Source: Candidatus Brocadia sp.
Lineage (GTDB): Bacteria > Planctomycetota > Brocadiia > Brocadiales > Brocadiaceae
Direction of reading: 5' to 3'
DNA: 64,000 nt
NCBI GenBank assembly: GCA_021463795.1
Contig: JAJTXE010000003.1
Location: 553,364-617,363 of the forward strand
Shown one piece after another: positions 30,429 through 63,269 of this stretch. Within the stretch, counting starts at the first letter, position 1; each line of letters starts with the position of its first letter. A model generated the notes under the pieces. That model was not told the origin of the DNA and made no database searches. It saw only the letters and a list, made by a program, of their open reading frames with translations. Position numbers and translations under genes: made by a program.

Positions 30429-30432
30429 TTGT

Positions 30433-44582: not shown

Positions 44583-44691
44583 GACAATTTTTTGTTTGAC
44601 AATTTATATTTTTCCTATATCTTTACTTTTTTGAGGTTTTGTTAAGATTTCTTTGTCCGCAGAATTAAATCGTTAAGGAGCTTTCTGTTCT

Positions 44692-45081: not shown

Positions 45082-45370
45082 GCAATCTGTGAACAATTAT
45101 CTTCCCTACATGAGCCAGCGGTAACAGACAATCAATTTTCTCATACCATAGGAGCGGAATTGAAAACCGTAAGGTTGTTTAAGAATTATTCCTTCATCCC
45201 CGTTTCCCCGTTTTTATTGCAAATTTCACCCATGCTCAACAAACAGCATATTTGTTTGGTAAAATTAACAAGATTATGGACCCGTTTATAGGCGTCCGTA
45301 ATTTTAAAGATAAAATTTTTATACGTTTGAGGCAATGCCTCGATAAAATACCAAAAGGAGATTTTTGAGA

Positions 45371-47296
45371 ATGTACACAATAGGAATTGATATTGGTTCA
45401 ATGTCAACCAATGGAGTTCTGATAAATGAGAAAAAAGAGATTCTTTCATCAATCATAATACCAACCGGCGCCAGCAGCAAAAAGGCTGCTGATAAAATCT
45501 TTCAACAGATACTTACCGAAAACAAGCTGTCTGCAAGTGATATTGATTATATTGTTGCCACCGGCTATGGGCGTATTAAGGTGCCGTTTGCCAATGAAGT
45601 AGTAACAGAAATAACCTGTCATGCGAAGGGTGCAAACTACTATTTTCCCATGGCAAGAACAATCATTGATATTGGTGGACAAGACAGCAAGGTCATTAAG
45701 GTCGACGCGAATGGAAATGTCCTCGACTTTGTTATGAATGACAAGTGTGCTGCCGGAACGGGACGGTTTCTTGAGGTTATGGCCAGAACCCTGGAGATCG
45801 ATCTGGAAGAAATGGGACCAATTTCGTTGAACGGAAAGAATAATGTTTCCGTCAGCAGTCTTTGTACGGTATTTGCAGAATCCGAGGTGGTATCCCTCAT
45901 TGGCGCAGATCACAAAACGGCGGATATTTGCAAAGGCTTACACATTTCCATTGCCAAACGCATCACCGCGCAGCTCAAGAGGATTGGGCTGGAAGAAGAG
46001 ATTGTCATGACAGGCGGCGTTGCAAAGAATATCGGTGTTGTAACAGAGATAGAGAAACATCTTGGGTGTAAAATCAAGATTTCAGAAGAACCACAAATCA
46101 ATGGAGCGCTTGGGGCGGCATTGATTGCCCTGGAAAAGGCGCGGGTAAAAACCAATAACCCTGTCTCGGTGTCCGTTTCTGTCTCCGGAAATACACAAAC
46201 CGAAGCTTCCGTAACAGAATTTTCCATTGAGGACCACGCCTTACCGAAAATCGGGTATTTTTGTTCTTACACGCCGGTGGAGCTTATTCGCGCCGCCGGA
46301 TTCCATCCGGTCAGAATTAAGGGTTCAGAACAGGAATCGAGCGCTGCCAATGAAATGCTTTGCGGCAATATCTGCCCTTATATCAAGGCTGTTGTTGATC
46401 AAAAAGTCAATGGCCAGCTGGAAGATTTTAAAGGAATGGTGTTTGTCAATTCATGTGACGGGATGAGACGGCTGTATGATGCATGGATAAAATTAGATAA
46501 TGGGAAAAAGTCGTTTAACTATATCTTAGATATTCCAAAAAATACCGATGATGCCGCAGTTTTTTATTACGCAAACCTGCTCAAAAACTTCAAAGAAAAA
46601 CTGGAAACATTTTTCATGCTGAAGATCAATCAGGATGACATTAACCAGAGTATTACCATCTACAATGCGGTAAGGGAAAAAGTCCGGGTGTTTTTACAAA
46701 AGTACTGGAATGGCTATCTCGGACAATCCGGTTATGAGATCTTTTCCCTGTTAAAGAAGGGCGCTAATGCAGTGCCGGAGAAATTCCAGTCCTATTTGAC
46801 CCATCTGATGAAACAAAGGGAAGACATTCGTGATACCCGGGACATACCCAGGCTCTTCGTCTGGGGGAGCATCATGGAAAACGAAAAGATCATGAAGATT
46901 ATAGAGGACGCTGGTTCAAAGGTAATTGCAGAGGATTTATGCAATGGCAGCCGCTACTTTGACGCCCAGGTTCATGTCAGCGACGACCCCATCCTGTCCA
47001 TTGCCAGGAGATATATCCTGCGATCTCCGTGCTCCCGGATGGTTAACATCTTTGACAGGATTAATAATGTGCTGACCACGATGCAGGAAAGATCAATTCA
47101 TGGGGCGATTTATCACACACTCAAATTTTGTGATCACAATCTCCTGGATTACCCTATGATAAAAAAGACGTTCCACGAGAAAAATATTCCCCTCCTTCAT
47201 CTCAATTGTGATTATTCCCTGAGCAGTGAAGGCCAAATAAAAACAAGGGTTGAAGCATTTCTTGAACAATTAACCAGTACCTCCAGGAAAGAGTAA
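45371..47296 (+). CDS. fusion protein: BadF/BadG/BcrA/BcrD-type ATPase (HgdC-like activator) plus a 2-hydroxyacyl-CoA dehydratase / double-cubane-cluster-family subunit
   Basis: N-terminal part: MYTIGIDIGSMSTNGV..., IIDIGGQDSKVI, and the cluster-bridging cysteines MNDKCAAGTGRF and SSLCTVFAESE. Linker: ...PVSVSVSVSGN... C-terminal part: ...GYFCSYTPVELIRAAGFHPVR..., ...LCGNICPY..., ...FVNSCDGMRR... The frame is continuous. Confidence 0.85.
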   Translation: MYTIGIDIGSMSTNGVLINEKKEILSSIIIPTGASSKKAADKIFQQILTENKLSASDIDYIVATGYGRIKVPFANEVVTEITCHAKGANYYFPMARTIIDIGGQDSKVIKVDANGNVLDFVMNDKCAAGTGRFLEVMARTLEIDLEEMGPISLNGKNNVSVSSLCTVFAESEVVSLIGADHKTADICKGLHISIAKRITAQLKRIGLEEEIVMTGGVAKNIGVVTEIEKHLGCKIKISEEPQINGALGAALIALEKARVKTNNPVSVSVSVSGNTQTEASVTEFSIEDHALPKIGYFCSYTPVELIRAAGFHPVRIKGSEQESSAANEMLCGNICPYIKAVVDQKVNGQLEDFKGMVFVNSCDGMRRLYDAWIKLDNGKKSFNYILDIPKNTDDAAVFYYANLLKNFKEKLETFFMLKINQDDINQSITIYNAVREKVRVFLQKYWNGYLGQSGYEIFSLLKKGANAVPEKFQSYLTHLMKQREDIRDTRDIPRLFVWGSIMENEKIMKIIEDAGSKVIAEDLCNGSRYFDAQVHVSDDPILSIARRYILRSPCSRMVNIFDRINNVLTTMQERSIHGAIYHTLKFCDHNLLDYPMIKKTFHEKNIPLLHLNCDYSLSSEGQIKTRVEAFLEQLTSTSRKE

Positions 47297-47303
47297 GTAA
47301 AAC

Positions 47304-48647
47304 ATGACGTCAATTCGTAAATATAAGGAATGGTTAATACCACTCCGTCGTCGTTTTTCTCCGATGTTGTTTCGTGAACTTTTGCGGTTTCTGCGGGTCT
47401 ATTCTTTTTTCTTCCGGGGAAATAAAAAGAAAGAATTGGTTTCCCTGCGCGTTCAGACCCGTGTCGGCGTAAAGCATCTGTACAAGGTGTATGCCAACCC
47501 GAAACGAACTGTTTGGACGACGATGTTCGTTCCGTCAGAAATGCTGTTTGCCATGGGATTGTATCCTTTTTGCCTGGAAATTGGCGCGGCGCTCTTTGCT
47601 GGTTTGGGACAAAGCTCGAAGGGGCTTATGGAGGCTGAGTCATATGGAGTTCCCACGGATATCTGCACCTTTCACCGATCCGCAATCGGGCACACCTTCA
47701 GAGATCTTTTTCCCAAAAACATCCTCCAGGTGGCCACGACAACGCTTTGTGATAACAACACCAAGACGATGAAGATATGCGAGTCTGTATCGGGAAAAGA
47801 GACCATCGTTATTGACGTGCCTTACGAGGCAGATGATTATTCGGTTCAATATCTTGCGAAACAACTGGAAGATTTTGCTCGCCGGCTAGAAGAGATCTCA
47901 GGCAGGAAGATGGAACAAGCGGCACTTGCAAAAGCAATTGATTACGCAAACCAAACACGGGAAAAGATGATCGAAATCAATGAGTTGAGAAAAGATCCGT
48001 TTTGTCCCCTCCCCGGTAGCAATGCATTAGGGTTTATGTTTCCGGCATATTTGTTAATTGGCTCGAAACTATCCGTGGAGTTTTTCTCTGCGCTGGCTGC
48101 TGAATTACGTGAGAAAACTGAAGAAGACAAGAAGAAAGGGGGACCTAGTCCCCGAAAAGATCTGATCAGGATTCTTTGGTTAGAATTAAAGCCTTATTTT
48201 AAGGTCGATTTCCTGACAAAATTAGAACAGGAGCAAGGGGTCAGGATTGTTTTTGAGGAAACCAATTACGTATACTGGGATAAGCTTGATCCGCAAAGAC
48301 CCTATGAAAGCCTTGCAAAGAAGCTCATTACCAGCCACTATAATGGTCCATTGGAGCGGCGTATTGAGATAACCAGGAAGCTTGCCAGAGAGTATCAGGT
48401 TGACGGCGTAGTGGTATTTTCATCCTGGGGCTGCAGGCGCAATAATGCTGCTGTGCCCACGCTGAAAAGGGAATTGAATAAGATCGGCTACCCCCTCCTC
48501 AGTCTTGACGGAGATTGTATCGATGATCACAATTATATGCCGGGACAATTCTCCACACGGATAGAAGGCTTTTTAGAGATGTTACGGGGAAGGAAAACAT
48601 CCGAGAGCCTTCCACAACCAGAAATATGTGAAGTGGGGGCAAGTTAA
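47304..48647 (+). CDS. 2-hydroxyacyl-CoA dehydratase / benzoyl-CoA reductase BcrB/C / double-cubane-cluster family subunit
   Basis: ...VWTTMFVPSEMLFAMGLYPFCLE..., ...GVPTDICTFHRSAIG..., ...TTTLCDNNTKT..., ...SSWGCRRNN... Starts 7 nt after the previous gene. Confidence 0.8.
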   Translation: MTSIRKYKEWLIPLRRRFSPMLFRELLRFLRVYSFFFRGNKKKELVSLRVQTRVGVKHLYKVYANPKRTVWTTMFVPSEMLFAMGLYPFCLEIGAALFAGLGQSSKGLMEAESYGVPTDICTFHRSAIGHTFRDLFPKNILQVATTTLCDNNTKTMKICESVSGKETIVIDVPYEADDYSVQYLAKQLEDFARRLEEISGRKMEQAALAKAIDYANQTREKMIEINELRKDPFCPLPGSNALGFMFPAYLLIGSKLSVEFFSALAAELREKTEEDKKKGGPSPRKDLIRILWLELKPYFKVDFLTKLEQEQGVRIVFEETNYVYWDKLDPQRPYESLAKKLITSHYNGPLERRIEITRKLAREYQVDGVVVFSSWGCRRNNAAVPTLKRELNKIGYPLLSLDGDCIDDHNYMPGQFSTRIEGFLEMLRGRKTSESLPQPEICEVGAS

Positions 48648-48651
48648 AAGG

Positions 48652-49272
48652 TTATTCGCTTTCATCTCTGCAACATGCAAGGCCTGCCACGACTTTTTCC
48701 AGGGGTGTCTTCCTGCGTATGATACCAGGGATAGCGAAATGGGGCAGTGTCCGTCACCATAATGCCAGAACGGCCGCCGTTCCCGATGCATTGTCATTAG
48801 CCCCCGGTGTATCTTCAAGCGAGTCGTAGTGCCCGCCGATTACCACAATTTCTCCCGGCCTTTCAGAACCGGTAATCTCACCTTCAAGATTATAACATCT
48901 CCGACCTCGCAAACTGCTCAAACTCACTTCATAGCCTTGACGGGAGACCTTAAGGCCTGCTTGTTGCAACGATGCTTCAATAAAATCTGCCGCAACAGCA
49001 AGATTTTTGTAGTTCGTTCTGACATTGCGGTCGCCGATCACTCCGGCTAATTGGTACACATCTTCCCGCAAAGTTTGCCTCAATAATTTTTGTTCCTCTG
49101 TCAGGGCGGGCATTGGCCTCTGATAGTTTTTACCTGGCATTCGAAACATAACGAACCACACCCCAATGCAAACAAGAGCAACGACAGGAATAACGTAAAC
49201 AAGAGAAACTTTATGCCGCCAGTCCTTCTTTATAGATGAGACAGGAAGGCTTTGTCCTGGCAAACGTTTCAC
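48652..49272 (-). pseudogene. M28-family aminopeptidase, internally deleted and frameshifted
   Basis: The N-terminal part reads ...IVVIGGHYDSLEDTPGANDNASGTAAVLALW* (first His/Asp zinc ligands). About 5 codons later, in another frame, comes TAPFRYPWYHTQEDTP (the C-terminal His ligand block). The last stretch (L)EKVVAGLACCRDESE* returns to the first frame. The ~130-150 residues that normally carry the Glu-Glu and Asp ligands are missing. Confidence 0.75.
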
Positions 49273-49334
49273 CCCGGTGACTATCTCAGGATGTTACTGA
49301 TTGTAAAACATTATTTGTAGGCGAAAATACCTCT

Positions 49335-50081
49335 TTATGAGTCCTGATCATATTTTACTTCGATGAGGCACAGGCCTTTTGCGGGCGCTGTGGGACCCGC
49401 GAGGTTCCTGTTCTTTGCACCTAAGATATCCTTCATGCTTTCCACCATAATTTTTCCCCTTCCCACCTCGATAAGAGTACCTACCATTGTTCTTACCATG
49501 TTATACAGAAAACCATTCGCCTCAACAGTAAAATAGAGATATTTCCCCTCTCTGGTAATCTCCAGCCTTTTTACCGTGCGTATCCGGTTTTTTCCCTGAA
49601 GTGCACTTGTGGTGAAGGAGGTAAAATCGTGAGTGCCTATGAGGTATTGTGCAGCGTACCGCATTTTCTCTGCATTCAGCAGAAGGCCGCAGAGATAACA
49701 AAAATTGCGATTGAGCGAGGTTCTTATCCAGTTATTAAGAAGCGTATATCGGTAGATCTTTGATTGAGCATCATATTGAGCATGAAAAGATACCGGTACA
49801 TCAGCCGCACCTTTTACGGTGATGTCGTGAGGGAGATAGAAATTGATGGCATGAATCAGCCGCTTGGATGGAACAGAGGATGTAGTTTTAAAATTTGCTA
49901 CCTGACCCAGGGCGTGCACCCCTGAATCAGTTCTGCTGGCGCCATAAATTTTAACCGGCTCCTGAACGACCTGTTCTACCGCCTTTGAAAGCATTTCCTG
50001 GACGGTTTTCTGGTCATTCTGCCATTGCCAGCCTGCGTATTGCGTACCGTCATATTCTATTAAAAGCCGTATGTTACGCAT
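49335..50081 (-). CDS. truA: tRNA pseudouridine(38-40) synthase
   Basis: MRNIRLLIEYDGTQYAGWQWQ..., ...GASRTDSGVHALGQV... Confidence 0.95.
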   Translation of the reverse strand: MRNIRLLIEYDGTQYAGWQWQNDQKTVQEMLSKAVEQVVQEPVKIYGASRTDSGVHALGQVANFKTTSSVPSKRLIHAINFYLPHDITVKGAADVPVSFHAQYDAQSKIYRYTLLNNWIRTSLNRNFCYLCGLLLNAEKMRYAAQYLIGTHDFTSFTTSALQGKNRIRTVKRLEITREGKYLYFTVEANGFLYNMVRTMVGTLIEVGRGKIMVESMKDILGAKNRNLAGPTAPAKGLCLIEVKYDQDS

Positions 50082-50139
50082 AGGCTAAATGAGTATTGTA
50101 AAGATGTACTCCCCGCAACTAAATCTCCCCCCCTTGGCC

Positions 50140-50196
50140 GGTAGAACAAGCGTTCCCGTTTGTCATTACGATATCAACCTGGCGGCTGACCTGCCT
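50140..50196 (+). repeat. GTCATT-core palindromic intergenic repeat (copy A, full length)
   Basis: GGTAGAACAAGCGTTCCCgtTTGTCATTACGATATCAACctGGCGGCTGACCTGCCT. Collinear with the copy at 57997-58055, with additional flank similarity on both sides. Confidence 0.65.
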
Positions 50197-50525
50197 CATG
50201 GTTTTGAGGGTTGCAAAATACTTGTAAAAAATTGAAACAAAAAAGATAGGTACAATCAACCAAAAAAAACACCTTTCACATATCTGTTTTTACTCAAAAT
50301 AGGTCTGAATCTTTTGTCGCAGTCCCCTGTGCTATCGTCAGGGGTCAGCAGGGTTTTGAGAATTCTGACAGAAAATCACCATGTTGAGACAGCATTATTC
50401 GGACAAAAACATTTTAACCGGCATTGCTTTTGTGGATTGACATTGTCATGGAAAACTGGAATACTATTCAATTCTTAATAAAAGCAGAGGTAGGTGTATC
50501 ATTTATCTGGAATGAGGAGAAGGCT

Positions 50526-51083
50526 ATGGTAATACCAGCGGGAACATATCATTTGACTGCGAATTCAGGAAAGTTGTCTGTTTATACGTTTAAAGAGGGA
50601 TTTCTCAGTGCAGTGGCTCATGACCTGTTAATCGAAGTGACCGGTTTTTCTGTTAAACTACATATTCCGGCCGGAGACATCCGTTTCGCAAGTGTGGAAG
50701 CCGAAATTCAGGCCAATTCATTGAAGGTAATCTGCGCCATGAAGGATGGTCTGCAACGGCATGATCTGCTGAAGGAAAAGGACAAGTCAGACATCGAAGA
50801 AGCCACTTTTAAGGATGTGCTACATTCGGACAAACACCCAGTTATCAACTTTCGTTCCACAAATATCCAGGAAAGGGACGGTGCGTACCACGTCGAAGGT
50901 GAGCTGGCCTTACATGGGGTTACGCGTCCTGCAGCATTTTCCGTGAAAACTACTGGAAAAGATCTTAAAGGAAAATTCATCCTGTCACAGAAAGATTATG
51001 GAATAAAACCTTACAAGGCGTTATTGGGAACGCTCAAGGTGAAAAACGAGATAGAGATGACGTTTGATTTCTCGTTAAGTTAA
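50526..51083 (+). CDS. YceI-like (polyisoprenoid-binding) domain protein, no signal peptide
   Basis: GAGGAG Shine-Dalgarno sequence 6 nt before the ATG at 50526. ...SGKLSVYTFKEGFLSAVAHDLLIEV... and ...VEGELALHGVTRPAAF... The track ORF opens at a TTG at 50424. Confidence 0.8.
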   Translation: MVIPAGTYHLTANSGKLSVYTFKEGFLSAVAHDLLIEVTGFSVKLHIPAGDIRFASVEAEIQANSLKVICAMKDGLQRHDLLKEKDKSDIEEATFKDVLHSDKHPVINFRSTNIQERDGAYHVEGELALHGVTRPAAFSVKTTGKDLKGKFILSQKDYGIKPYKALLGTLKVKNEIEMTFDFSLS

Positions 51084-51284
51084 ACATGATTGTAAACCAG
51101 TCCAGGTCATTTTAGTTTGGTGGATCTTTAAGATACCTGCTTTAAAAAATACCTTTATTTTTGGAACAAAAATTTATACAATTACGGTTTTTAGTTCAAC
51201 ACCAGAAACTTAAATAAGGTGAATTGCGGTTTAAACGGTGGCCGGTTTTTGATGATTGTTTCAGCGGAAGCGGAAAAGGGGTAA

Positions 51285-51776
51285 ATGGTGGAAAACAATA
51301 GAAGAAAATTCCTGAAAGTTGTGTCACATAGCCTGGGAGGTGTTTTGGCAGCAGGCATCGCAGCGCCACTGGTTGGTTTAGGGATACACCCGTGGCTGAA
51401 AGAAACAGTGTATGGAACTGAGGACTTTATTAACCTTGGCAAATTGGAAGATTTTCCCGTTGGTATTCCTAAAAAAATGAACGTTACCTCTTCCAAGATG
51501 GATGCATGGAATGTCTTTGAAGGATTGGTTATGGGGTCGGTTTGGGTGCTGCGGAAAGAAGATGATTCTTTAAAGGTATTTTCGGTAAATTGCCCGCATC
51601 TTGGCTGTGGCATCAACTGGGGAGAAGATGAAAAGCAATTTCTGTGTCCCTGCCACGAAGGGGTTTTTGACATAAATGGTAAGGTACTATCGGGGCCCGC
51701 ACCTCGCAGCCTTTACAGTTACGAAACGAAGATTGAAAATGATAATGTTCTGGTAAATTATAAAAAATTGATATAA
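51285..51776 (+). CDS. Rieske [2Fe-2S] protein with a twin-arginine signal
   Basis: NRRKFLKVV (Tat motif), CPHLGC...CPCHEGVF (Rieske boxes). 163 aa. Confidence 0.9.
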   Translation: MVENNRRKFLKVVSHSLGGVLAAGIAAPLVGLGIHPWLKETVYGTEDFINLGKLEDFPVGIPKKMNVTSSKMDAWNVFEGLVMGSVWVLRKEDDSLKVFSVNCPHLGCGINWGEDEKQFLCPCHEGVFDINGKVLSGPAPRSLYSYETKIENDNVLVNYKKLI

Positions 51777-51805
51777 AGATATTGTTAAAAGGTGATAGGT
51801 AATCT

Positions 51806-53593
51806 ATGGCAAACAAGCTTGGTGAATGGATAGAAGACAGAACTGGACTTAGCAAACTGTTAAAAGCGGCGTTGGATGAGCCAGTGCATGGCGGGGCCAA
51901 ATGGTCATATATTTTTGGGAGCGGACTGGTATTTCTCTTCGTTCTGCAGGCGGTGACCGGCATTTTTATGGCGAGTTACTATTCTCCTTCTTCGACGGCA
52001 GCGTGGGGAAGTGTTTATTACCTTCAGTACAAAACCTCTTTCGGATGGTTTGTACGCGGCGTGCACCATTATGGTTCGAGCGCAATGATGATCGTGGCCA
52101 TGGTGCATATGTTTCAGGTCTTTATTTTCGGCGCATATAAAAAACCCCGGGAGCTGAATTGGATTTCCGGAGTTATCCTGCTTTTATTCCTGGCTGGCTT
52201 TGGTCTTACCGGGTATCTGTTGCCTTGGGATCAGAAGGGATACTGGGCCACACAGGTTGCCACCAATATTATGGGAACGGTCCCGGTGATTGGAAAGTAC
52301 ATTAAGATTCTGCACCAGGGAGGGGCCGACTATGGGAATTTTACCATAACCCGTTTCTACACCCTGCATGTATTTTTATTACCCATTTCGCTCGTCTTTT
52401 TCCTCTTTATTCACATAGCCCTTTTTCGTAAGCACGGGGTAACCCCATATTGGAAAATGAGAGAAGATGTGTTAAGAGACCGTATTGACCCCTTTTGGCC
52501 TGACCAGATATTTAAAGACATTGTATTCGCTCTGGGCATGTATGCAGTCATTGCCGGCGTTGTTTTTTGGACACGGGGCGCCGAGCTGCAATCGCCAGCA
52601 GACCCTGCCTCTAATTACCTTGCACGGCCTGAATGGTATTTCTTATTCTTGTTTGAACTCTTAAAATATTGCCAGGGAAAATATCTCATTGTCGGAACTG
52701 TGATCATTCCCGCCCTTGCTCTGACTTTTTTATTTGTACTGCCATTTATCGACAGAAATACCTCAAGGTATCCTTCAAAGAGGATGCCATATTTTGGAGC
52801 GATATTTTCTGGATTGACCGGGGCCGTTGTTTTGACCGTGCTCGCCATGCATCATGACAGCAAGGATATCCATATCATCCATCAGCGTGAGGAGGCAGAG
52901 AAACAGGCCGCTAGAGCGGTGAAGTTAGCAGAAAAAGGTATTCCTCCCACGGGAGCCCTGTCGATCTTCCTTCACGATCCCCTTGCCCTTGGTGGAAAAA
53001 TCTTTAAAGAAAGCTGTATTGGTTGTCATAAAATAGGAGTGGAGGGCGGTGATAATGGCCCTGACTTTACCAACTTTGGTTCAAGAGAATGGATTGCCGG
53101 GCTGTTGAAAAACCCGAAAGACGTAAAGTATTTCAAAGAATCAGGGGCGATGCCTCCCATAAAACTCCCGGATGAATCACTCCTGGACATGACGGAATTC
53201 CTTTTAAGCCAGTCAGAGGGCTTGATCCATCAAAATGCCGAACGAGTGGAGAGGGGAAAAGAACTGGTATTAAAAGGGAATTGCGTTGTCTGCCATCCCA
53301 TTGGCAACAAAGACCTGAAAAAGATCGCACCAAACCTGACGGAATATCTGTCGGAGACATGGTTAAAAGAATTCATCAGGAACCCGGGCGATCCTAGATT
53401 CTACGGTACCAGGAATAAAATGCCTGCCTTTGACAGGCTTACCGATAGCCAGTTAGATGCACTGATTCAGTACTTATTCAGTTTATCAAAGGATCGGGCG
53501 CTGGTTTCCGAAAAACAGGAAAAGGGAAAAAGGGGGTATGTGTTCGGTCTCACCTCCCCGCGGACAATGATTACTTTTCAAGACAAGTCCTGA
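51806..53593 (+). CDS. cytochrome b (b6 plus subunit IV-like) fused to a C-terminal dihaem cytochrome c
   Basis: ...FVRGVHHYGSSAMMIVAMVHMFQVF... and ...GYLLPWDQKGYWAT... belong to the cyt b core. Two CxxCH motifs are present: CIGCH (nt 53015-53029) and CVVCH (nt 53282-53296). 595 aa. Confidence 0.9.
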   Translation: MANKLGEWIEDRTGLSKLLKAALDEPVHGGAKWSYIFGSGLVFLFVLQAVTGIFMASYYSPSSTAAWGSVYYLQYKTSFGWFVRGVHHYGSSAMMIVAMVHMFQVFIFGAYKKPRELNWISGVILLLFLAGFGLTGYLLPWDQKGYWATQVATNIMGTVPVIGKYIKILHQGGADYGNFTITRFYTLHVFLLPISLVFFLFIHIALFRKHGVTPYWKMREDVLRDRIDPFWPDQIFKDIVFALGMYAVIAGVVFWTRGAELQSPADPASNYLARPEWYFLFLFELLKYCQGKYLIVGTVIIPALALTFLFVLPFIDRNTSRYPSKRMPYFGAIFSGLTGAVVLTVLAMHHDSKDIHIIHQREEAEKQAARAVKLAEKGIPPTGALSIFLHDPLALGGKIFKESCIGCHKIGVEGGDNGPDFTNFGSREWIAGLLKNPKDVKYFKESGAMPPIKLPDESLLDMTEFLLSQSEGLIHQNAERVERGKELVLKGNCVVCHPIGNKDLKKIAPNLTEYLSETWLKEFIRNPGDPRFYGTRNKMPAFDRLTDSQLDALIQYLFSLSKDRALVSEKQEKGKRGYVFGLTSPRTMITFQDKS

Positions 53594-53682
53594 GCAAAAT
53601 CCGGAAGCTGATGCACGGAAGTTCAACAGAATTATAACATCTATATCGTGGTGCAGCAAAGCCGTAAACAAATCCCTCTATT

Positions 53683-53712
53683 GGTAGGACAAGCGTCCCG
53701 GTTGACCTACCT
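53683..53712 (+). repeat. GTCATT-family repeat, collapsed copy B (arms only, central core missing)
   Basis: GGTAGGACAAGCGTCCC|GGTTGACCTACCT is the left and right arms of copies A and C joined directly (11 of 13 bp stem). Left-flank similarity to copy C is also present (caaagc..aaac.aat.cctct.tt). Confidence 0.6.
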
Positions 53713-54120
53713 AACAGCCGTATTCTGATTGCCGTAAGCGAAATGGTGAAGGAGGGCGGTTTAGGAAACGATATCAGTGAATTGCCGGTGGCTGGCGCGT
53801 GCACGGAGTGGATGAGTGAAAAGGCAATTGCTATCGGGCAATTTCTGGTAGCCTCTGGTATTTATACCGTCTTTGGTATGAATTCGCCGGTGGCTGGTGC
53901 TCCCGATATGCAAAGGTTGCTAACAAAAGAGATGGAAGAGATGTGTGGCGCACGATGGGATTTTGAGGCTGATTTAAAGAAGATCGGAAAGATGCTCATG
54001 GATCACATCGAAAAGAAGAGAGATGCACTTGGTATTAACGTGAATAAGGAGAGAAAACTGTACGATATGGCTGAGAGAAGGGCGCTCGAAAGGGAGTGCA
54101 AGCCGGCAGCACATCATTAA
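53713..54120 (+). pseudogene. acsA: Ni,Fe-CO dehydrogenase catalytic subunit (AcsA/CooS), C-terminal ~135 codons only
   Basis: NSRILIAVSEMVKEGGLGNDISELPVAGACTEWMSEKAIAIGQFLVASGIYTVFG... matches the extreme C-terminus of CooS/AcsA (..VDNSRI.., LPVA...EWMSEKA). An in-frame stop lies at 53665-53667. No N-terminal ~500 codons exist upstream, because the cyt b stop is at 53593. Confidence 0.8.
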
Positions 54121-54142
54121 AGTGATTTAAAGGGGTGTTTTT

Positions 54143-56326
54143 ATGTCCAAGATTATCTGTACTGCCGCCATTCGCGGCGCATATAAAATTGTAGATAAGG
54201 CTGATAAAAAACTTGCCGATGCAATAGCGCAAAAGGGACGCGATTGCAAGGTGGAGTTTCCGAACACGGCGTATTACTTGCCCATCATTTATTCCATGAC
54301 GGGTGTTGCCGTGAAAACACTGGAGGATTGCGAGTATATCCTGGGAATGGCGCGGAGCATGCTCCCGCCATTGCCGGCAGAAAAGCACTGGGTACCTTAC
54401 CTTGGGCATACCCTTGATGCCGGGATGGCAACGCTTTTTGCCGAGGAAGTGTATGAGGCCTGTAAATATCTCATCGGGCCTCACCCGGTAGACGGAATAT
54501 GGCTTGGCGCTGCTGATGACGTTATCATGCGCGAACGCGGCATTGAGTTTGTCGATGGCACGGCGCCAGGGTTTGCCGCAATTGTGGGGTGTGCGCCTGA
54601 TGCAGATACGGCCGTGAAGATTGCCAGGGAACTTCAGCAAAAGAATCTGTACGTGTTTATGCAGTCAGATAATTTTGGGACATCGTTTGCCGAGCAATTG
54701 GCTGAAAAGGGCGTCCAGATGGGGTGGGATACCCGACTGGTGCCTTTTGGAAAAGAGACCTCGGCTGCTGTATATTCTCTGGGTTTTGCCAACAGGGCAG
54801 CCCTTTCATTTGGAAATGTGCCCCCCGGTGAGGCAAGGAGAAATCTCCTCTATAACAAAAACCGCATCTTTGCATTTGTTATGGCAATAGGAACCGCCGT
54901 AACAGATGAACAGTATGCCAACGCAGCGGGTGCTATCAATTATGGTTTTCCGACGATTTCAAATATCGACATTCCGGAGATATTGCCCACCGGCGTATGT
55001 ACCTATGAACACGTGGTTTCAAGGGTGCCGGTGGACAAGATTGTTGATAAATGCATTGAAGTCCGTGGGCTAAAGATTTCTATCCACAAGATGGATATCC
55101 CCGTGGCGTACGGTCCGGCTTTCGAAGGTGAGCGTATCAGAAAAGAGGATATGCAGATTGAGATTGGCGGCCCCGGCGTCCCTGCATTTGAATATGTGTG
55201 CACCAAAGAAATTGACGCGGTTGAGGATGGCAAAATACAGGTTATCGGGCCAGACCTGGACGAAATTAAGCCGGGACCAGGTGTGTCGCTTGGTATCATG
55301 GTTGAGGTGGCAGGCCGAAAGATGCAGCCTGATTTTGAGCCAATCTTCGAACGTCAGATGCACCGGTTTCTGGGTGAAGCCCAGGGCCTGTTCCACATGG
55401 GGCAAAGGGACATCATCCGTCATCGCATCAGTAAAGAGGCATTTAAGGCAGGGTTCAGGATCAAGCATATCGGCAGTATCATCCATTCGCAGTTCCATAG
55501 TAATTTTGGGGCGATTGTTGACAAAGTGCAGGTTACCTTTTATACCAAAAGGGAAGATGTGGAGCGGATATTAAAAGACGTGCGCGCCGCTTATGCAGAG
55601 CGTGATGCGCGATTAGAGGGTATGACCGATGACTCGGTGAACATGTTTTACAGTTGCACCCTCTGTCAAAGTTTTGCGCCTACCCATATTTGCGTTGTGA
55701 CACCGGAACGTTCCGGTCTTTGTGGCTCCGTCAGCTGGCTGGACGGCAAGGCAGGCTACGAGATCAACCCCACAGGGCCAAATCAGCCGATCGAGCGTGG
55801 CAAGGTGGTGAATGAAAATCTGGGGCAGTGGGAAGGCACGAACTCATTTATCTATAATGGGTCAAACCGGTCGCTGGAGAAGGTAAGTTTGTATAGTATT
55901 ATGACAGACCCGATGACCAGTTGCGGCTGTTTTGAGTGCATCTCGGCGATGTTGCCCATGACGAATGGGATTATGGTGGTAGACCGTGACTTCACGGAAA
56001 TGACCCCCTGTGGTATGAAATTTTCCACGCTTGCCGGGACGGTTGGCGGTGGTTTGCAGACCCCCGGGTTTATGGGGCACAGCAAGTTTTATTTAGGCAG
56101 TAGGAAATTCATTTCAGCCGATGGTGGTTTGGGCCGTGTTGTGTGGATGCCCAAGGCACTGAAGGAGGAGTTGGCGGAAACGCTTGCCGATACGGCACAG
56201 GAGCTTGGTCTTGAAGATTTTCTCAATAAAATAGCTGATGAAACGGTTGCTCAGACTGAGGACGAAGTTGTGGCTTATATGCAGAAAGTTAGCCATCCGG
56301 CTTTGGTTATGCCGGGAAAAGATTAA
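54143..56326 (+). CDS. acsB: acetyl-CoA synthase (CODH/ACS A-cluster subunit)
   Basis: MSKIICTAAIRGAYKIV..., A-cluster cysteines CTLCQSFAPTHICVVTPERSGLCG and SCGCFEC. 727 aa, apparently full length. Confidence 0.95.
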   Translation: MSKIICTAAIRGAYKIVDKADKKLADAIAQKGRDCKVEFPNTAYYLPIIYSMTGVAVKTLEDCEYILGMARSMLPPLPAEKHWVPYLGHTLDAGMATLFAEEVYEACKYLIGPHPVDGIWLGAADDVIMRERGIEFVDGTAPGFAAIVGCAPDADTAVKIARELQQKNLYVFMQSDNFGTSFAEQLAEKGVQMGWDTRLVPFGKETSAAVYSLGFANRAALSFGNVPPGEARRNLLYNKNRIFAFVMAIGTAVTDEQYANAAGAINYGFPTISNIDIPEILPTGVCTYEHVVSRVPVDKIVDKCIEVRGLKISIHKMDIPVAYGPAFEGERIRKEDMQIEIGGPGVPAFEYVCTKEIDAVEDGKIQVIGPDLDEIKPGPGVSLGIMVEVAGRKMQPDFEPIFERQMHRFLGEAQGLFHMGQRDIIRHRISKEAFKAGFRIKHIGSIIHSQFHSNFGAIVDKVQVTFYTKREDVERILKDVRAAYAERDARLEGMTDDSVNMFYSCTLCQSFAPTHICVVTPERSGLCGSVSWLDGKAGYEINPTGPNQPIERGKVVNENLGQWEGTNSFIYNGSNRSLEKVSLYSIMTDPMTSCGCFECISAMLPMTNGIMVVDRDFTEMTPCGMKFSTLAGTVGGGLQTPGFMGHSKFYLGSRKFISADGGLGRVVWMPKALKEELAETLADTAQELGLEDFLNKIADETVAQTEDEVVAYMQKVSHPALVMPGKD

Positions 56327-56471
56327 CCGTTTGATTTCTGTTGAGACGGGACAACCCCTGGGAAAGGTAGAGACGGATACCAAGAGAAATTTCTGGATGT
56401 CCGCTGAAGAAGCTTTCAAATACGGATTGGTCAGTAAAATTATACAGACGAGTGATGATTTAAAGACATAG
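56316..56471 (+). pseudogene. clpP: ClpP protease, C-terminal ~45-50 codon remnant
   Basis: EKINRLISVETGQPLGKVETDTKRNFWMSAEEAFKYGLVSKIIQTSDDLKT* matches the ClpP C-terminal pattern (…TGQ..e.i..Dt.RD.fMsAeEA.eYGL.D.I…). It overlaps the acsB stop in another frame. No catalytic part lies upstream. Confidence 0.7.
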
Positions 56472-56612
56472 TTTTATGGTAATTGCTCAATATCAACGGC
56501 ACGCATGTTCTTTTTATATCCACTCCGTTATCCACTTTTCATGAATGCGGGTGAGTGGGTGGTTATTCGTTTGATGATGTGCAAATTTCTTTATGTGAAA
56601 GGATAGTAGAGC

Positions 56613-57953
56613 ATGGCACTAACGGGATTAGACATTTATAAACTCCTTCCCAAAACAAATTGCAAGAAGTGCGGAAGGCCTACCTGTCTTGCATTTGCGA
56701 TGCAATTGGCGCAAAAAAAGGCAAACCTGTCGGATTGTCCGGATGTAAGCGAAGAGGCAAAAAAAGTGCTGGGTGCGGCAGCAGCCCCTCCCATTAAACT
56801 CGTGACGGTTGGTGCGGGCGCCAGACAAGTTCAGGTGGGTGAGGAAAATGTCCTGTTCAGACACGAAGAGAAGTTTTATCATCCCACGGGCGTCGCCGTC
56901 ACTATCCCGGACGACCTGAGTGAAGATGCTTTCAACGACCGGTTAAAAAAGGTTAACAGTTTGAAACTTACCCGTGTTGGTACGGAAATCGAGATTGACC
57001 TGATTGCCGTGATGAACAAGAGCAATAATGCAGAAAAATTTGCCGAAGCGGCAAAGAAAGTAAGTGCCGGGTCTCATTTGAATATGATTTTAAGCAGTGC
57101 GTCTGTGGATAATATGAAGGCTGCTTTGCAACATTGTGCTGAAAAGAGACCGCTGCTTCATGGCGCCAGTGCCAGCAACTGTGAGGCAATGGCAGCTCTT
57201 GCACAGGAAAAGAAGTGCCCGATGACCGTAACAGCCCAGACCCTTGAGGAGCTTGCTGAACTGGCAGAACGTGCCAAAAAGGCTGGCGTTGAAGAGATTG
57301 TTCTGGATGTGGGAGGGAACAATCCCAAAGAGGTGCTGCAAAAACTGACCAAGGTTCGTCGCCTTGCCTTAAAGAAAAATTTCCGCACGCTCGGATTCCC
57401 GATGATTACCTTTGTGTGTGATGAAGACCCGTTCCAGGAAATCGCACTGGCAAGCACCTATTTGCTGAAGTATGCCGGCATTGTTGCGGTGAATGCGTGT
57501 GAGCCATGGGCAATTATGCCCCTGCTTACTGCCAGGACAAATATATTTACGGATCCGCAAAAGCCCATACAGGTGGAGCCGCGATTGTACGCCGTTGGTG
57601 ACGTTAAGGATGATTCCCCGATATTGTTTACCACAAACTTCTCACTTACCTATTATACGGTTGAGGGAGAGGTTGAGTCGAGCCGTGTGCCTGCCTATAT
57701 TTTAGCGGTGGATACGGGTGGGACCTCCGTGCTAACTGCGTACTCAGGAGACAAATTAAACGACAAGGTGGTTGCGAAGGCCATGACAGACGCACAGGTT
57801 GATACCAAGGTAAAGCATAAGAAAATGATCATCCCGGGTCTTGTTGCCGTGATGTCCGGGAAATTGCAGGAGACCCTTGGATGGGAAATTCTGGTGGGTC
57901 CACGAGAGGCTTCGGGACTCCCTTCCTATCTGAAAACGGTGTGGAAAGCGTAA
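56613..57953 (+). CDS. acsC: corrinoid iron-sulfur protein, large subunit
   Basis: MALTGLDIYKLLPKTNCKKCGRPTCLAFAMQLAQKKANLSDCP ([4Fe-4S] motif). 446 aa. Confidence 0.95.
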   Translation: MALTGLDIYKLLPKTNCKKCGRPTCLAFAMQLAQKKANLSDCPDVSEEAKKVLGAAAAPPIKLVTVGAGARQVQVGEENVLFRHEEKFYHPTGVAVTIPDDLSEDAFNDRLKKVNSLKLTRVGTEIEIDLIAVMNKSNNAEKFAEAAKKVSAGSHLNMILSSASVDNMKAALQHCAEKRPLLHGASASNCEAMAALAQEKKCPMTVTAQTLEELAELAERAKKAGVEEIVLDVGGNNPKEVLQKLTKVRRLALKKNFRTLGFPMITFVCDEDPFQEIALASTYLLKYAGIVAVNACEPWAIMPLLTARTNIFTDPQKPIQVEPRLYAVGDVKDDSPILFTTNFSLTYYTVEGEVESSRVPAYILAVDTGGTSVLTAYSGDKLNDKVVAKAMTDAQVDTKVKHKKMIIPGLVAVMSGKLQETLGWEILVGPREASGLPSYLKTVWKA

Positions 57954-57996
57954 CATAACAAAGCTGCAACCAATACCTCTCTATTACCTCTCTCTT

Positions 57997-58055
57997 GGTA
58001 GGACAAGCGTCCCCACTTGTCATTATGATGTCAACCGGGGACGGTTGACCTGCCT
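57997..58055 (+). repeat. GTCATT-core palindromic intergenic repeat (copy C, full length)
   Basis: GGTAGGACAAGCGTCCCCacTTGTCATTATGATGTCAACcGGGGACGGTTGACCTGCCT. The outer arms are an imperfect inverted repeat. The core has GTCA..GTCA spaced 11 nt apart. Confidence 0.65.
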
Positions 58056-58175
58056 TAGGGATTTGCGGACGTGGTAAAAAACTTGCAAAAGCATGTCCTC
58101 ATGAAAATGGGGAAAGAATTTCTTACACAATAATACGATAAAACTGTTTAAGGATTTTCACTTCAGGTCTAATGT

Positions 58176-60203
58176 ATGGAAAACTCACGATTTAAAGTAC
58201 AGTTCTTTCCTGTTGACGTTACCGTAGAGATTGAAAAGGGAAAAACTATCCTCGATGCTGCATATAAGGGAGACCTGTTTATAAACGCCCTGTGCGGGGG
58301 CGACGGCACGTGCGGCAAGTGTAAAGTCATTCTGGGTTCCGGTATGATTGAAAGCATGCCCACGACTCATATCTCGGTATCAGAGGCGCAAAAAGGGTAT
58401 GTCCTCGCATGCAGTACAAAGGTAATGGGCAACCTGGAAGTAATCATTCCTGAAGAATCGAAGCTTGATAAAAGTCAAATCCTTGTCAGTGAATTTCCTC
58501 AATTCTCAGGTTCCCTGGCAGCAGCTACCGCTAACGTGGAACATTTTCAGCAAGACCCTTTGGTGAATAAAGTATATCTTGAACTGCCGCAACCTACCCT
58601 GGATGACAGTATGGCTGATTATGAGCGGCTGTGCAGGGAGATCATGGTGAAAACCCACGTTCCACTGGAAAAGCTGACTACAAATTTCGATGTCCTCAAA
58701 CGCCTTCCGGGTATTCTGAGGAGCAGTAACTGGAAGGTGACGATGACGCTGGGATACAGGGGTCCGTCGGTAGAAATTATGGAAATACAGGGGGGCAATG
58801 CCAGCGAAGGAAATTATGGTGTTGCCGTGGACGTTGGAACAACCACGGTGGTTGCGCACCTTATGAATCTTTCCCGCGGAGAGACGGTCGATGTTGAAGC
58901 AACCTACAATTCTCAGATTAAATATGGGGACGATTATATTCAGAGGATTATGTATGCCGCTGAAAATAACGCCATGGAGCTCATGCAGGAGGTGCTGGTT
59001 GAGGATATTAACCATCTCATTTCTACCCTTGTTAAGAGAAACCATCTTAGTATCCACGATATTCATGCGGTGGTTTGTGCGGGAAATACGGTAATGACCC
59101 ATTTTCTCATCGGTTTGGACCCTACGAATATCAGAAAAGAGCCGTATCTTCCGTCCGCAAGCTTTGTGCCTCCGTTGAGGGCACATGAGGTAGGGGTGAA
59201 AATTAATAGCAACGGCCTGCTCTATACCCTCCCGTGCGTTGGCGCTTATGTGGGAGGGGATATTTCTTCTGGTGCTTTGGCAATCAGGCTGGACAAGGCG
59301 GAGATGTTGTCGCTGCTCGTTGATATCGGCACGAATGGCGAGATTGTGCTGGGCAATAAAGACTGGATGGTGTGCTGTTCCGCATCGGCAGGCCCTTCTT
59401 TTGAAGGCAGCGGTATCTCCTGTGGTACCCGTGCGGCTAAGGGTGCTATTGAAAAGGTGTCGATTACAAAAAATTACCATGTTACGTATAAAACCATCGG
59501 AGACGCCCCGGCAAGCGGTATTTGTGGCTCCGGGCTTTTAGACTGCCTGGCGAATCTTGTCAGAAGTGGTGTCATCGACAGAACTGGCAATTTCCAGAAA
59601 GGAATAAGCTCAGATCGTTTGAGGAAAACAGACAACGGCTATGAATTTATCCTGGTTGACAGGAGCGAAACCTCTACAAAACGGGATATCGTTATTACCC
59701 AGGCGGACATTCAGAATCTCATGCGGTCAAAAGCGGCGATCTATTCGGCAATCTCTACCCTGCTCGAATCCATGGGAATGGAAGCAAGTAATATTGAGCA
59801 GCTCTATCTTGCGGGCGGGTTTGGCAATTATCTCGACATACGGAGCGCGATCACGATTGGGATGCTCCCTGACATGTCTGCTTCAAAAGTACAGTTTGTA
59901 GGGAATACCTCGGTGCTTGGCGCAAAGATGGTCCTCCTCGCAAAAGATGCCTATGAAGTGATGCTCCCTGACATGTCTGCTTCAAAAGTACAGTTTGTAG
60001 GGAATACCTCGGTGCTTGGCGCAAAGATGGTCCTCCTCGCAAAAGATGCCTATGAAGTTGCCAGAGTCATTGCGTCCAAGATGACATATTTTGATCTCAT
60101 GAGTAATAATAAATACATGGAGGAATATGTATCGGCAAACTTTTTGCCGCACACCGATATTGAAAAATTTCCATCCGTTGCAGAGGAACTGATGGTAAGT
60201 TAG
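58176..60203 (+). CDS. reductive activase of the corrinoid Fe-S protein (RACo: [2Fe-2S] ferredoxin plus ASKHA ATPase, DUF4445-type), carrying an internal 33-aa duplication
   Basis: N-terminal CGGDGTCGKCKV...LAC ferredoxin, ASKHA motifs VAVDVGTTTVVAH and LLVDIGTNGEIVLG. 675 aa including the duplicated MLPDMSASKVQFVGNTSVLGAKMVLLAKDAYEV. Confidence 0.9.
   Translation: MENSRFKVQFFPVDVTVEIEKGKTILDAAYKGDLFINALCGGDGTCGKCKVILGSGMIESMPTTHISVSEAQKGYVLACSTKVMGNLEVIIPEESKLDKSQILVSEFPQFSGSLAAATANVEHFQQDPLVNKVYLELPQPTLDDSMADYERLCREIMVKTHVPLEKLTTNFDVLKRLPGILRSSNWKVTMTLGYRGPSVEIMEIQGGNASEGNYGVAVDVGTTTVVAHLMNLSRGETVDVEATYNSQIKYGDDYIQRIMYAAENNAMELMQEVLVEDINHLISTLVKRNHLSIHDIHAVVCAGNTVMTHFLIGLDPTNIRKEPYLPSASFVPPLRAHEVGVKINSNGLLYTLPCVGAYVGGDISSGALAIRLDKAEMLSLLVDIGTNGEIVLGNKDWMVCCSASAGPSFEGSGISCGTRAAKGAIEKVSITKNYHVTYKTIGDAPASGICGSGLLDCLANLVRSGVIDRTGNFQKGISSDRLRKTDNGYEFILVDRSETSTKRDIVITQADIQNLMRSKAAIYSAISTLLESMGMEASNIEQLYLAGGFGNYLDIRSAITIGMLPDMSASKVQFVGNTSVLGAKMVLLAKDAYEVMLPDMSASKVQFVGNTSVLGAKMVLLAKDAYEVARVIASKMTYFDLMSNNKYMEEYVSANFLPHTDIEKFPSVAEELMVS
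59861..60058 (+). repeat. perfect 2 x 99-bp in-frame tandem duplication inside the RACo gene
   Basis: Unit 1 (59861-59959) and unit 2 (59960-60058) are identical base for base (gatgctccctgacatgtctg...gatgcctatgaagt). The flanking bases differ, so each unit is exactly 99 bp (33 codons). Confidence 0.97.
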
Positions 60204-60246
60204 GCCTTCGGCTACGTATAAATACAAATTTTCCCGACTGGAGTCC

Positions 60247-60304
60247 ATCCCCTTTCACCCCTGCCAGCGGGGGACATTTGTTTGTCGCCTTCCGTGAGAG
60301 GGAT
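60247..60304. repeat. imperfect palindrome of the CCCCTTTCAC...GTGAGAGGG type
   Basis: ATCCCCTTTCAC (60247-60258) pairs with GTGAGAGGGAT (60294-60304), with mismatches. Intergenic, between the RACo gene and cooC. Confidence 0.35.
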
Positions 60305-60359
60305 TAAGGGGGAGAAAATTTTTGTTTGAAATTTCTAAACCTTCAAAAAAGAGGTTTCT

Positions 60360-61151
60360 ATGGCTTTTAATATTGCAGTGGCAGGAAAGGGAGGAACGGG
60401 GAAGTCGACCCTTTCTGCCCTTATTATCCGATATATTACCGAAGAGCTTGGTAAGCCGGTATCGGCGGTAGATGCCGATCCGAATGCGTCTCTCGGTTCA
60501 TTGCTTGGTCTGCACGTGCAAAGCACCGTTGCTGACATCCGTGAAGATATCGTGGAGAAAAAAGTAGATTTTTCCGGGATGTCTAAGGACAGATATATTG
60601 AGTATGCCATCGAGGAGTCTATCATTGAAAAGGAGAAATTTGATCTTTTAACGATGGGGAGGCCGGAAGGGCCGAAATGTTATTGCTATGTCAATAATCT
60701 CCTGCGTAAATATCTTGATAAAGTAGGCACAACGTACCCGTTTATTGTTACCGACAATGAGGCAGGGATGGAGCATCTCTCACGCAGGACAACGAACAAT
60801 GTCGATCTCCTGTTGATTGTAAGTGAACCAACGATTGTAGGTGCATTGACCTTACAAAGGATCATCGCATTAGCTGAATCTCTTTCGGTTACGATCCGGC
60901 AAAAGTATTGTATCCTAAACCGGGTGCCCCAGAAGGGTATTCATGAAAATCTTCAGCAGAAGTTGGACAGCCTGGGAATTGAAGTATCTGCGATTTTCCC
61001 CTTTGATCAGGAGGTTTACGATACTGCGGCGTGTGGTGCTTCTGTGTTTGAAATTTCCCGTGAAAATGAGCTATATCAAAAACTGGGGAATTTCCTGCAG
61101 AAACATTTGCCGGCAAGTATGCTCGAAAAGAGCATCTCTGGGCGTACCTAA
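60360..61151 (+). CDS. cooC: CooC/AcsF-type Ni-insertion accessory ATPase
   Basis: AVAGKGGTGKST (P-loop) and GPKCYCYVNN (the CxC metal site). 263 aa. Confidence 0.9.
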   Translation: MAFNIAVAGKGGTGKSTLSALIIRYITEELGKPVSAVDADPNASLGSLLGLHVQSTVADIREDIVEKKVDFSGMSKDRYIEYAIEESIIEKEKFDLLTMGRPEGPKCYCYVNNLLRKYLDKVGTTYPFIVTDNEAGMEHLSRRTTNNVDLLLIVSEPTIVGALTLQRIIALAESLSVTIRQKYCILNRVPQKGIHENLQQKLDSLGIEVSAIFPFDQEVYDTAACGASVFEISRENELYQKLGNFLQKHLPASMLEKSISGRT

Positions 61152-61185
61152 AAGAGCGCGCCTTTAAAGGTTATACGCAGACACT

Positions 61186-61243
61186 TGTCATTGCGAGGAA
61201 CGCATGTAACGAAGCAATATTAATTCAAGGTTTAGGAATTTTA
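61186..61243. repeat. GTCATT-core repeat (copy R6) followed by a 25-nt motif shared with 44186-44210
   Basis: cacTTGTCATTGCgaggaacgcatgtaacgaaGCAATattaattcAAGGTTTAGGAATTTtaa. The stretch attaatt-N-aaggtttaggaattt-N-aa recurs at 44186-44210 with 2 mismatches. Confidence 0.45.
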
Positions 61244-61420
61244 ACCTTTTTGACTCAGGTAGAGCGACCAGCCTTGTCGTTCCACAATGAGGGAAGCTTA
61301 AAGTCGCTGCCTAAGGCAGCCAAAATAAAGAAAAACTCGTTCATTGACGTGTCCGCCAGCACGATGATGAGGTTTCTTGAGATTTTTAGATATTGAACGG
61401 ATTGGGTAGGAGAGAAATGA

Positions 61421-62380: not shown

Positions 62381-62485
62381 AAAACGTAATATTCACCTCA
62401 AAGACACGAATGACACAAAGGAAGAACGAAAGTAATAAAAAGTTCAAGGAATTGATAATTTTTAGAAAGAAAGGATAAACATACA

Positions 62486-63097: not shown

Positions 63098-63269
63098 TTT
63101 TATCATAGTTGCGTTCGCCATCTTTATGTTAGTTCGGGTCATCAACAAGGTAACACAACCAAAACCTGTGGCTGCACCTGCAAAAACAAAAGAATGCGCA
63201 TTCTGCATCTCCGCTGTTCCGATCAAAGCAACCCGATGTCCATTTTGCACCTCTGAGTTAAAGGCCTAA
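63036..63269 (+). pseudogene. mscL: large-conductance mechanosensitive channel, C-terminal ~75 codons only
   Basis: [39 protein letters not shown]... aligns with MscL TM2 (E. coli ...[28 protein letters not shown]). The tail is a Zn-ribbon-like [22 protein letters not shown]. There is no TM1 or start codon, because the upstream DNA is acsE in another frame. Confidence 0.75.

Follow-up and report, generated by a model that had tools for sequence, protein, structure and literature searches.

The window analysed here, a stretch of 64,000 nucleotides (nt) from Candidatus Brocadia sp. (assembly GCA_021463795.1, contig JAJTXE010000003.1, positions 553,364 to 617,363 of the forward strand), carries the acs gene cluster, in which acsA, the gene for the catalytic subunit of the nickel-iron carbon monoxide dehydrogenase (Ni,Fe-CODH), is reduced to its last 135 codons. 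Judged by comparison with related and near-identical assemblies, this truncated acsA is very probably an artefact of sequence assembly, in which contigs were abutted without spacers. A biological truncation is very unlikely, and the organism itself almost certainly carries an intact cooC-acsA-acsB-clpP-acsC-RACo-cooC-acsD-acsE cluster. The pieces are labelled A to E and the junctions J1 to J4, and the first junction involves the following features:

53713 to 54120, + strand: 3' fragment of acsA (Ni,Fe-CODH catalytic subunit), 135 codons plus stop, start of piece B
53712 to 53713, no strand: junction J1, where the bc1 locus runs directly into the middle of acsA; either side could have supplied the T at 53712
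53676 to 53712, + strand: short allele of a Brocadia intergenic palindromic repeat, with the stem GGTAGG...CCTACC at 53683-53711 and the natural tail TAGGGGTTTC... gone
54143 to 56326, + strand: acsB (acetyl-CoA synthase, ACS; 727 amino acids, aa), with Pfam CODH_A_N, CdhC and ACS_CODH_B_C; only its last 4 codons are chimeric
51806 to 53593, + strand: cytochrome b fused to di-haem cytochrome c, 595 aa, with Pfam Cytochrome_B, Cytochrom_B_C and two Cytochrom_C domains
51285 to 51776, + strand: Rieske Fe-S protein gene of a bc1-type complex (Pfam Rieske, E = 4.5e-12), in piece A and outside the acs operon

The frame from 53713 reads NSRILIAVSEMVKEGG...RALERECKPAAHH and ends with a stop codon at 54118-54120. 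An initial annotation made from the sequence alone had taken it for the extreme C-terminus of a CooS/AcsA protein cut down to some 135 codons, and the alignments bear this out. The match to the Pfam family Prismane/CODH (PF03063; E = 5.3e-19; 68.7 bits, with the cut-off at 27) is confined to model positions 427-513 of 513, the alignment to CODH chains in the PDB (6ytt, 9fzy, 1mjg and 1su6; E = 7e-20) is limited to about residues 526-630 of 630-636, and fragment residues 1-135 correspond to residues 528-662 of B. carolinensis AcsA (L021) with 100% aa identity. Family similarity is clear, and the full-length architecture of approximately 630-675 aa is missing, with 135 of 653-662 residues left. 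Like the AcsA/CooS genes of intact operons, the fragment encodes the extreme C-terminus and lies directly 5' of acsB, from which it is separated by 22 nt as in L021; it differs from them in that most of the PF03063 model, everything before position 427, is gone. No further acsA piece was found in the window, where the remaining tblastn matches all had E > 0.4. Judged from the relatives, the break falls 3 codons past the Cys of the CVDNSR motif. The alignment to 1su6 begins at residue 528, and the C-cluster ligands, in the numbering of C. hydrogenoformans CODH-II, are His261, Cys295, Cys333, Cys446, Cys476 and Cys526; the N-terminal CxxC motifs are likewise missing. On the basis of that alignment and ligand list, the fragment is devoid of any B-, C- or D-cluster ligand. 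It cannot be a working enzyme, nor does it represent a distinct small-protein family.

A protein homology search with the fragment returned short CODH pieces only and no family of free-standing C-terminal CODH proteins. Of the three pieces examined further, two (P0001 on L003 and P0002 on L004) begin within 35 nt of contig ends, and the third (P0005 on L002) comes from a frameshift-ridden long-read contig in which acsA is otherwise complete. The 125-aa product expected as the gene call for a real internal fragment has one public record, on a contig beginning at that very codon. As a separate observation on the long-read contig (ENA ERZ1286166 contig_67, 150 kb, 8587-12515), frameshifts split both acsA and acsB into many short open reading frames (ORFs); they are typical of an unpolished long-read assembly and account for the presence of the 100-aa 'CODH' protein P0005 on a long contig. 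The window fragment itself appears free of sequence decay, since all 17 nt differences from L001, a contig of a 97%-identical strain, are synonymous and its aa identity to L021 is complete.

A scan for AcsB, with one genome per species, placed the window in Candidatus Brocadia; 529 acsB-encoding stretches were confirmed in the genome collection. We fetched 77 loci with acsA beside acsB, and 65 of these carry the gene at full length, which is 653-662 aa in relatives. In 11 of the remaining 12 the gene is interrupted by a contig or locus end, and the last (L075) aligns over residues 42-662 and is essentially full length. Over the 3' part of acsA and acsB, nt identity reaches 99.2% to B. carolinensis (L021) and 97.9% to B. 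pituitae (L016), and the homology to the window begins exactly at 53712/53713 in each of some 30 Brocadiaceae loci. The relatives read through this point as ...GCG TGT GTT GAT/AAC AGC CGT (A-C-V-D/N-S-R, the slash marking the break). At J1 the window has ...CCGGTTGACCTACCT/AACAGCCGT (in short form ...GGTTGACCTACCT/AACAGCCGT) whereas the relatives have ...GCGTGTGTTGAT/AACAGCCGT. The joined sequence is GGTTGACCTACCT/AACAGCCGTATT, spanned by the string GGTTGACCTACCTAACAGCCGTATT, and the natural 5' part of acsA would be expected to end ...TGTGTTGA(T/C) at the break. The cytochrome b/c gene is the last gene of piece A; its ORF ends at 53593, which leaves 119 nt up to 53713, and within this interval an in-frame stop codon (TAA, 53665-53667) precedes the fragment.

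The factual statements of the initial annotation all hold, apart from its wording of a 'collapsed' repeat, which we correct below. They include the short distance from the cytochrome b stop, the in-frame stop, the onset of homology right after the palindrome, and an acsB that starts 22 nt past the fragment and keeps its A-cluster cysteines, which we find as C-x2-C...C...C from residue 505 and Cys-Gly-Cys at residue 594. Three further breaks (J2-J4) in the same 10 kb lie beyond what that annotation observed.

The bc1 side of J1 was examined through contigs that encode an identical Rieske protein, which occurs in 99 blocks of the public collections; 23 contigs were read and ten are presented here (L085-L094). 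In these ten Logan contigs, collinearity with the window starts at 41328 at the earliest and extends to 53712 at most. Four of them (L085, L087, L088 and L090) run identically with the window up to ...GGTTGACCTACCT (53712) and include the same short palindrome. Past 53712, a further 941 nt of L085 begin with TAGGGGTTTCTGGGG... and lead into an LTD-domain gene, L087 and L090 proceed with CAGGGGTTTC..., and L088 ends exactly at 53712. The natural neighbour of cytochrome b is thus not acsA. Since no relative has a match to the tail of L085, the natural continuation of cytochrome b, in the 10 kb around acs, the bc1 and acs loci do not adjoin each other in related genomes. Seven independent contigs extend to this site on the bc1 side; J1 is found in none of them and in no locus on the acs side.

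Both flanks of J1 have the properties of break points in an assembly graph. The base that naturally follows 53712 varies between contigs (T in L085 but C in L087 and L090), and on the acsA side the base preceding 53713 is a third codon position that varies as well, with GAT in most relatives and GAC in L005 and L095. Furthermore, of the seven independent contigs extending to the site 3' of cytochrome b, four end in or at the repeat, L088 at 53712 itself. The repeat unit is also cut at J1: naturally it reads ...CCTACCT/TAGGGGTTTC, in agreement with the tail of the full copy elsewhere in the window. Microhomology-mediated joining at GTTGA was considered as a candidate and rejected, J1 not lying inside that pentamer. 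As an aside on the acsA flank, contig L001 (Logan, SRR12234144) starts at window position 53743, 31 nt past the polymorphic base 53712, which suggests that the GAT/GAC site broke the graph of that assembly as well, 31 being the Logan assembly k.

The closest comparison is offered by a near-identical strain sampled in SRR33746415, in which the operon is intact. Its bc1-side contig L085 is 99.5-99.8% identical to window positions 41883-53712. On the acs side, where its contigs L095 and L098 have 98.5-100% nt identity to the window (segment-wise identity to L021 is 92.8-99.2%), L095 differs by 1 mismatch in 1736 nt from 56310-58045 and encodes an identical AcsC, and L098 has no mismatch over 58025-59959 and none over 59960-61704. 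A single contig of 8.1 kb (L095) carries cooC, acsA (653 aa), acsB, clpP (212 aa) and acsC, and L098 carries RACo, the gene for the reductive activator of corrinoid protein (642 aa), cooC, acsD and acsE (261 aa). None of the junctions J1-J4 occurs in L085, L095 or L098. The independent assemblies read through the junction positions instead: L085 on the bc1 side, L095 and L096 on the acsA side and at J2, and L098 at J3 and on the left side of J4. As a separate observation on piece B, all 40 mismatches to L095 lie within 53886-54994 (L095 3196-4304), a stretch of 1.1 kb with identical flanks, and piece B is closer to B. carolinensis (99.2%) than to L095; this indicates a strain mosaic within piece B, produced by recombination or by a mixed-strain consensus.

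Two exact searches complete the comparison. A scan of JGI metagenome contigs with a 28-mer for J1 gave no match, and a natural-acsA control over the same point also gave none, which indicates that the lineage is not in that collection and that the negative result for the junction carries no information. Exact look-ups of three window products (AcsB, cytochrome b and a 181-aa TPR ORF) each found no public record, in the case of AcsB because its C-terminus is chimeric.

J1 is only the first of four structural breaks within 9.3 kb, each of which except J3 leaves gene fragments. The region downstream of J1 contains the following features:

56310 to 56311, no strand: junction J2, where 826 bp of all relatives are gone (the end of acsB, the spacer and the 5' part of clpP); the TG is ambiguous
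56310 to 56471, + strand: 3' remnant of clpP, 53 codons plus stop (Pfam CLP_protease 136-181 of 182, E = 6e-13), start of piece C
56613 to 57953, + strand: acsC (corrinoid Fe-S protein large subunit), intact, with Pfam FeS and CdhD
57990 to 58060, + strand: palindromic repeat at full length, between acsC and RACo, a place within which Logan contigs break
58176 to 60203, + strand: RACo, 675 aa, with Pfam RACo domains and RACo_C_ter in two stretches
59861 to 60058, + strand: junction J3, a tandem duplication in which 59861-59959 equals 59960-60058 (99 nt, 100% identity)
60360 to 61151, + strand: cooC/acsF-type Ni-insertion ATPase, intact, with Pfam CbiA; the identical protein is in 50 public-collection blocks
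61421 to 62380, + strand: acsD (corrinoid Fe-S protein small subunit), intact, with Pfam CdhD and 319 aa as in relatives
62486 to 63035, + strand: 5' part of acsE (methyltransferase), 183 of 261 codons (Pfam Pterin_bind 14-186 of 244), end of piece D
63036 to 63269, + strand: 3' remnant of mscL, 77 codons plus stop (Pfam MscL 62-111 of 123, E = 1.2e-11), start of piece E

At J2, the C-terminus of AcsB reads PGKD* in the window versus APMF* in relatives, and clpP, a remnant here, encodes 212 aa in L095 and 208 aa in L096. At J3, the 99-bp duplication appears in no relative examined, and L098, which lacks it, matches the window at 100% identity on either side; RACo has 642 aa in four independent assemblies (L096, L097, L098 and L102) and 641 aa in a fifth (L105). 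At J4 (63035/63036), the 5' part of acsE is joined out of frame to the 3' part of mscL, and homology to acsE, which encodes 261 aa in relatives, stops at 63035 in all of them. With J1 absent from the public assemblies examined and J2-J4 missing from relatives and independent contigs, the junctions are unique to the window. Compared with intact Brocadiaceae acs clusters, for example those of B. carolinensis (AYTS01000093), B. pituitae (AP021856) and the Logan SRR33746415 contigs, the window keeps the same order acsA-acsB-[clpP]-acsC-RACo-cooC-acsD-acsE. It differs by the loss of the 5' 1.6 kb of acsA, of 826 bp from acsB/clpP and of the 3' 78 codons of acsE, by an extra 99 bp in RACo, and by the flanking bc1 and mscL genes in place of cooC and the natural downstream genes.

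We propose a model in which the operon was broken up and reassembled in silico. A de Bruijn-graph assembler would shatter the acs operon into short contigs ending at polymorphic sites and repeats, because the operon varies very little between Brocadia strains that occur together and has a dispersed palindromic repeat on its flanks; all four breaks are confined to this conserved region. Piece A would be a long and sound contig (at least 26.6-53.7 kb, ending at 53712), followed by the acs pieces B (53713-56311, 2.6 kb), C (56310-59959, 3.65 kb) and D (59960-63035, 3.08 kb) and then by E from 63036. These pieces would have been set in operon order and abutted without spacers, presumably by scaffolding, reference ordering or concatenation free of Ns. 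The 5' 1.6 kb of acsA, the 826-bp acsB-clpP piece and the 3' end of acsE would either never have been assembled or have remained in discarded contigs, for instance because these were too short. The flanks of J1 can be understood as unitig ends, the left one lying one base before the T/C polymorphism and the right one one base after the GAT/GAC site. Contigs that are adjacent after assembly at k = 99/100 share an overlap of 99 nt, and the exact duplication at J3 has this very length; the end of C and the start of D would overlap by one k-mer and have been abutted instead of merged. The window resembles joins in draft or scaffolded de Bruijn-graph assemblies in its 99-nt exact duplication, in pieces of 2.6-3.7 kb and in ends at polymorphisms and at a dispersed repeat, and differs from them in that no Ns or gap annotation are visible and no strain switch occurs at J3.

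Several points weigh against this model. The artefact is deduced from comparison with other assemblies and not seen directly in reads, and B, C and D stand in the right order and orientation, which would require some ordering step, whether by a scaffolder or by a reference. The true neighbour of piece A lies >7 kb from acsA in relatives, and a simple paired-end link leaves the adjacency of A and B unexplained. A strain switch would be expected past the 99-mer at J3 and was not seen, the identity to L098 remaining 100% for 1745 nt until the first mismatch at 61705. Polymorphic bases were also looked for beside both flanks of J2 and J4, and only one side of J2 fits (AAG/AAA before TGCCGG). Finally, 99 is a multiple of 3, and the length alone is compatible with an in-frame biological duplication.

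The alternative that survives best, although we consider it improbable, is that the lesions are real: recent illegitimate recombination and deletions would have joined bc1 to mid-acsA, removed the 5' part of clpP, duplicated 99 bp in RACo and cut acsE, leaving a dead acs operon in a lineage dependent on another CODH or on organic carbon. Consistent with this, the sequences meet cleanly at the junctions, where 1-2 nt might represent microhomology (the T at J1 and the TG at J2), the window holds a genuine-looking 44-bp slippage deletion between 10-bp direct repeats (48694-48703), and the 99-bp duplication is in frame. However, four independent hits to one essential operon would be needed in a strain otherwise 99.9-100% identical to one whose operon is intact, the fragments lack decay, J1 occurs in none of the independent assemblies examined, and both of its flanks coincide with graph-assembly break points. 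Moreover, anammox bacteria fix carbon through the Wood-Ljungdahl pathway, which uses the acs genes (PMC6828613), and loss of acsA and acsE would consequently be severely deleterious for autotrophic growth. Slightly less probable still is the more specific proposal that a Brocadia subpopulation, apart from this nearly identical to strains whose operon is normal, has very recently wrecked its CODH/ACS by several illegitimate recombinations, one of them at a palindrome like the repetitive extragenic palindromic (REP) elements; such an anammox lineage would be without Wood-Ljungdahl CO2 fixation and would live on organic carbon or on its neighbours. Recombination between repeats, as in the repeat-associated deletion that the initial annotation entertained, is excluded, the relatives having no repeat copy on the acsA side.

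We give little credence to the idea that 53713-63035 is a second, partial and decaying acs duplicate beside bc1, with an intact primary copy elsewhere in the genome. It would reconcile a crippled locus with autotrophy, and unrelated genes do bound the region on both sides, yet the natural continuation seen in L085 is not found past 63035, which argues against a simple insertion. Furthermore, L085, L095 and L098 run through the junction positions, where a second copy bearing these junctions would branch the graph of that sample, and kilobases at 100% identity combined with four rearrangements are implausible. The earlier suggestion of a second acsA/cooS elsewhere is accordingly not upheld; the evidence favours only the option of an assembly join.

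The role of the palindromic repeat deserves separate consideration. The element at 53683-53711 is an imperfect palindrome with 13-nt arms and a shortened copy of a repeat of about 70 nt, which is present three times in the window (50128-50205, 53676-53712 and 57990-58060). Copies in relatives lie at 12205-12281 and 17694-17759 in L005, at about 14700-14770 in L016 and at about 11510-11580 in L021, with further copies in L085-L094 and in L095/L098. The RNA fold of the full copy at 57990-58060 is strong (-40.5 kcal/mol, z = -3.9), and that of the short allele is not significant (z = -0.77). With multiple intergenic copies and a conserved imperfect palindrome, the family qualifies as REP-like; it resembles REP elements and miniature inverted-repeat transposable elements (MITEs) in its ~70-nt palindrome, its occurrence in several intergenic spacers, its strong fold and its long and short alleles at one site. 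It differs in that an Rfam scan of 53.4-58.3 kb gave no match; neither a transposase nor a target-site duplication was seen, no search having been aimed at either. Four independent assemblies (L085, L087, L088 and L090) carry the same short 30-nt allele 3' of cytochrome b, and L086, L089 and L091 have a long allele at this site and end inside it. To judge from these contigs, the 30-nt form is a natural allele and not an assembly collapse, as the initial annotation had described it. At the acsA break itself, no repeat copy is present in L005, L016, L021, L095 or L096. That annotation had also allowed for an assembly collapsed or joined at the repeat, and the join of unrelated pieces stands, while the collapse does not. 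Public short-read contigs habitually end inside the repeat, and our results support a role of the repeat at J1 that is limited to stopping contig extension. The least likely of all readings is that, by collapse or mis-threading, the assembler confused a repeat copy following cytochrome b with another next to acsA, so that all the intervening sequence was lost: the repeat is indeed dispersed, with its three window copies and more in related acs clusters, and public contigs do break there, but relatives have conserved coding DNA (...GCGTGTGTTGAT/AAC) and no repeat at or near the acsA break, the short form is natural at the bc1 site, and a collapse would leave a whole repeat unit, whereas the unit here is deprived of its tail.

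Outside the acs region, the window is collinear with independent contigs over 14709-17752, 26604-42514 and 41328-53712, the sole difference being a 44-bp deletion. At 48694-48703, 44 bp present in all ten independent contigs are gone from the window, between copies of the 10-bp direct repeat TTTTTCCAGG, and this loss looks like a slippage deletion. Next to it is a truncated Peptidase_M28 ORF (48754-49272) that covers only model positions 1-43 of 193, the deletion being recorded just downstream; the ORF is similarly short (119-172 aa) in other assemblies.

Taken at face value, the locus would describe an anammox bacterium without a working CO dehydrogenase, and the Wood-Ljungdahl pathway would be wrongly removed from a metabolic reconstruction. 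The initial statement that the locus cannot supply CO to ACS is correct for the deposited sequence and does not extend to the organism, given that assemblies of a near-identical strain have the operon intact. The practical value of our analysis lies in quality control, with 53.7-63.0 kb (~9.3 kb) best regarded as a patchwork in which the truncations of acsA, clpP, acsE and mscL are false, RACo gains 33 spurious residues and AcsB ends in four incorrect ones. The truncated acsA is almost certainly a problem of sequence quality and not real biology, and the case shows that Brocadia metagenome assemblies have a weak point in conserved operons bordered by dispersed palindromic repeats.

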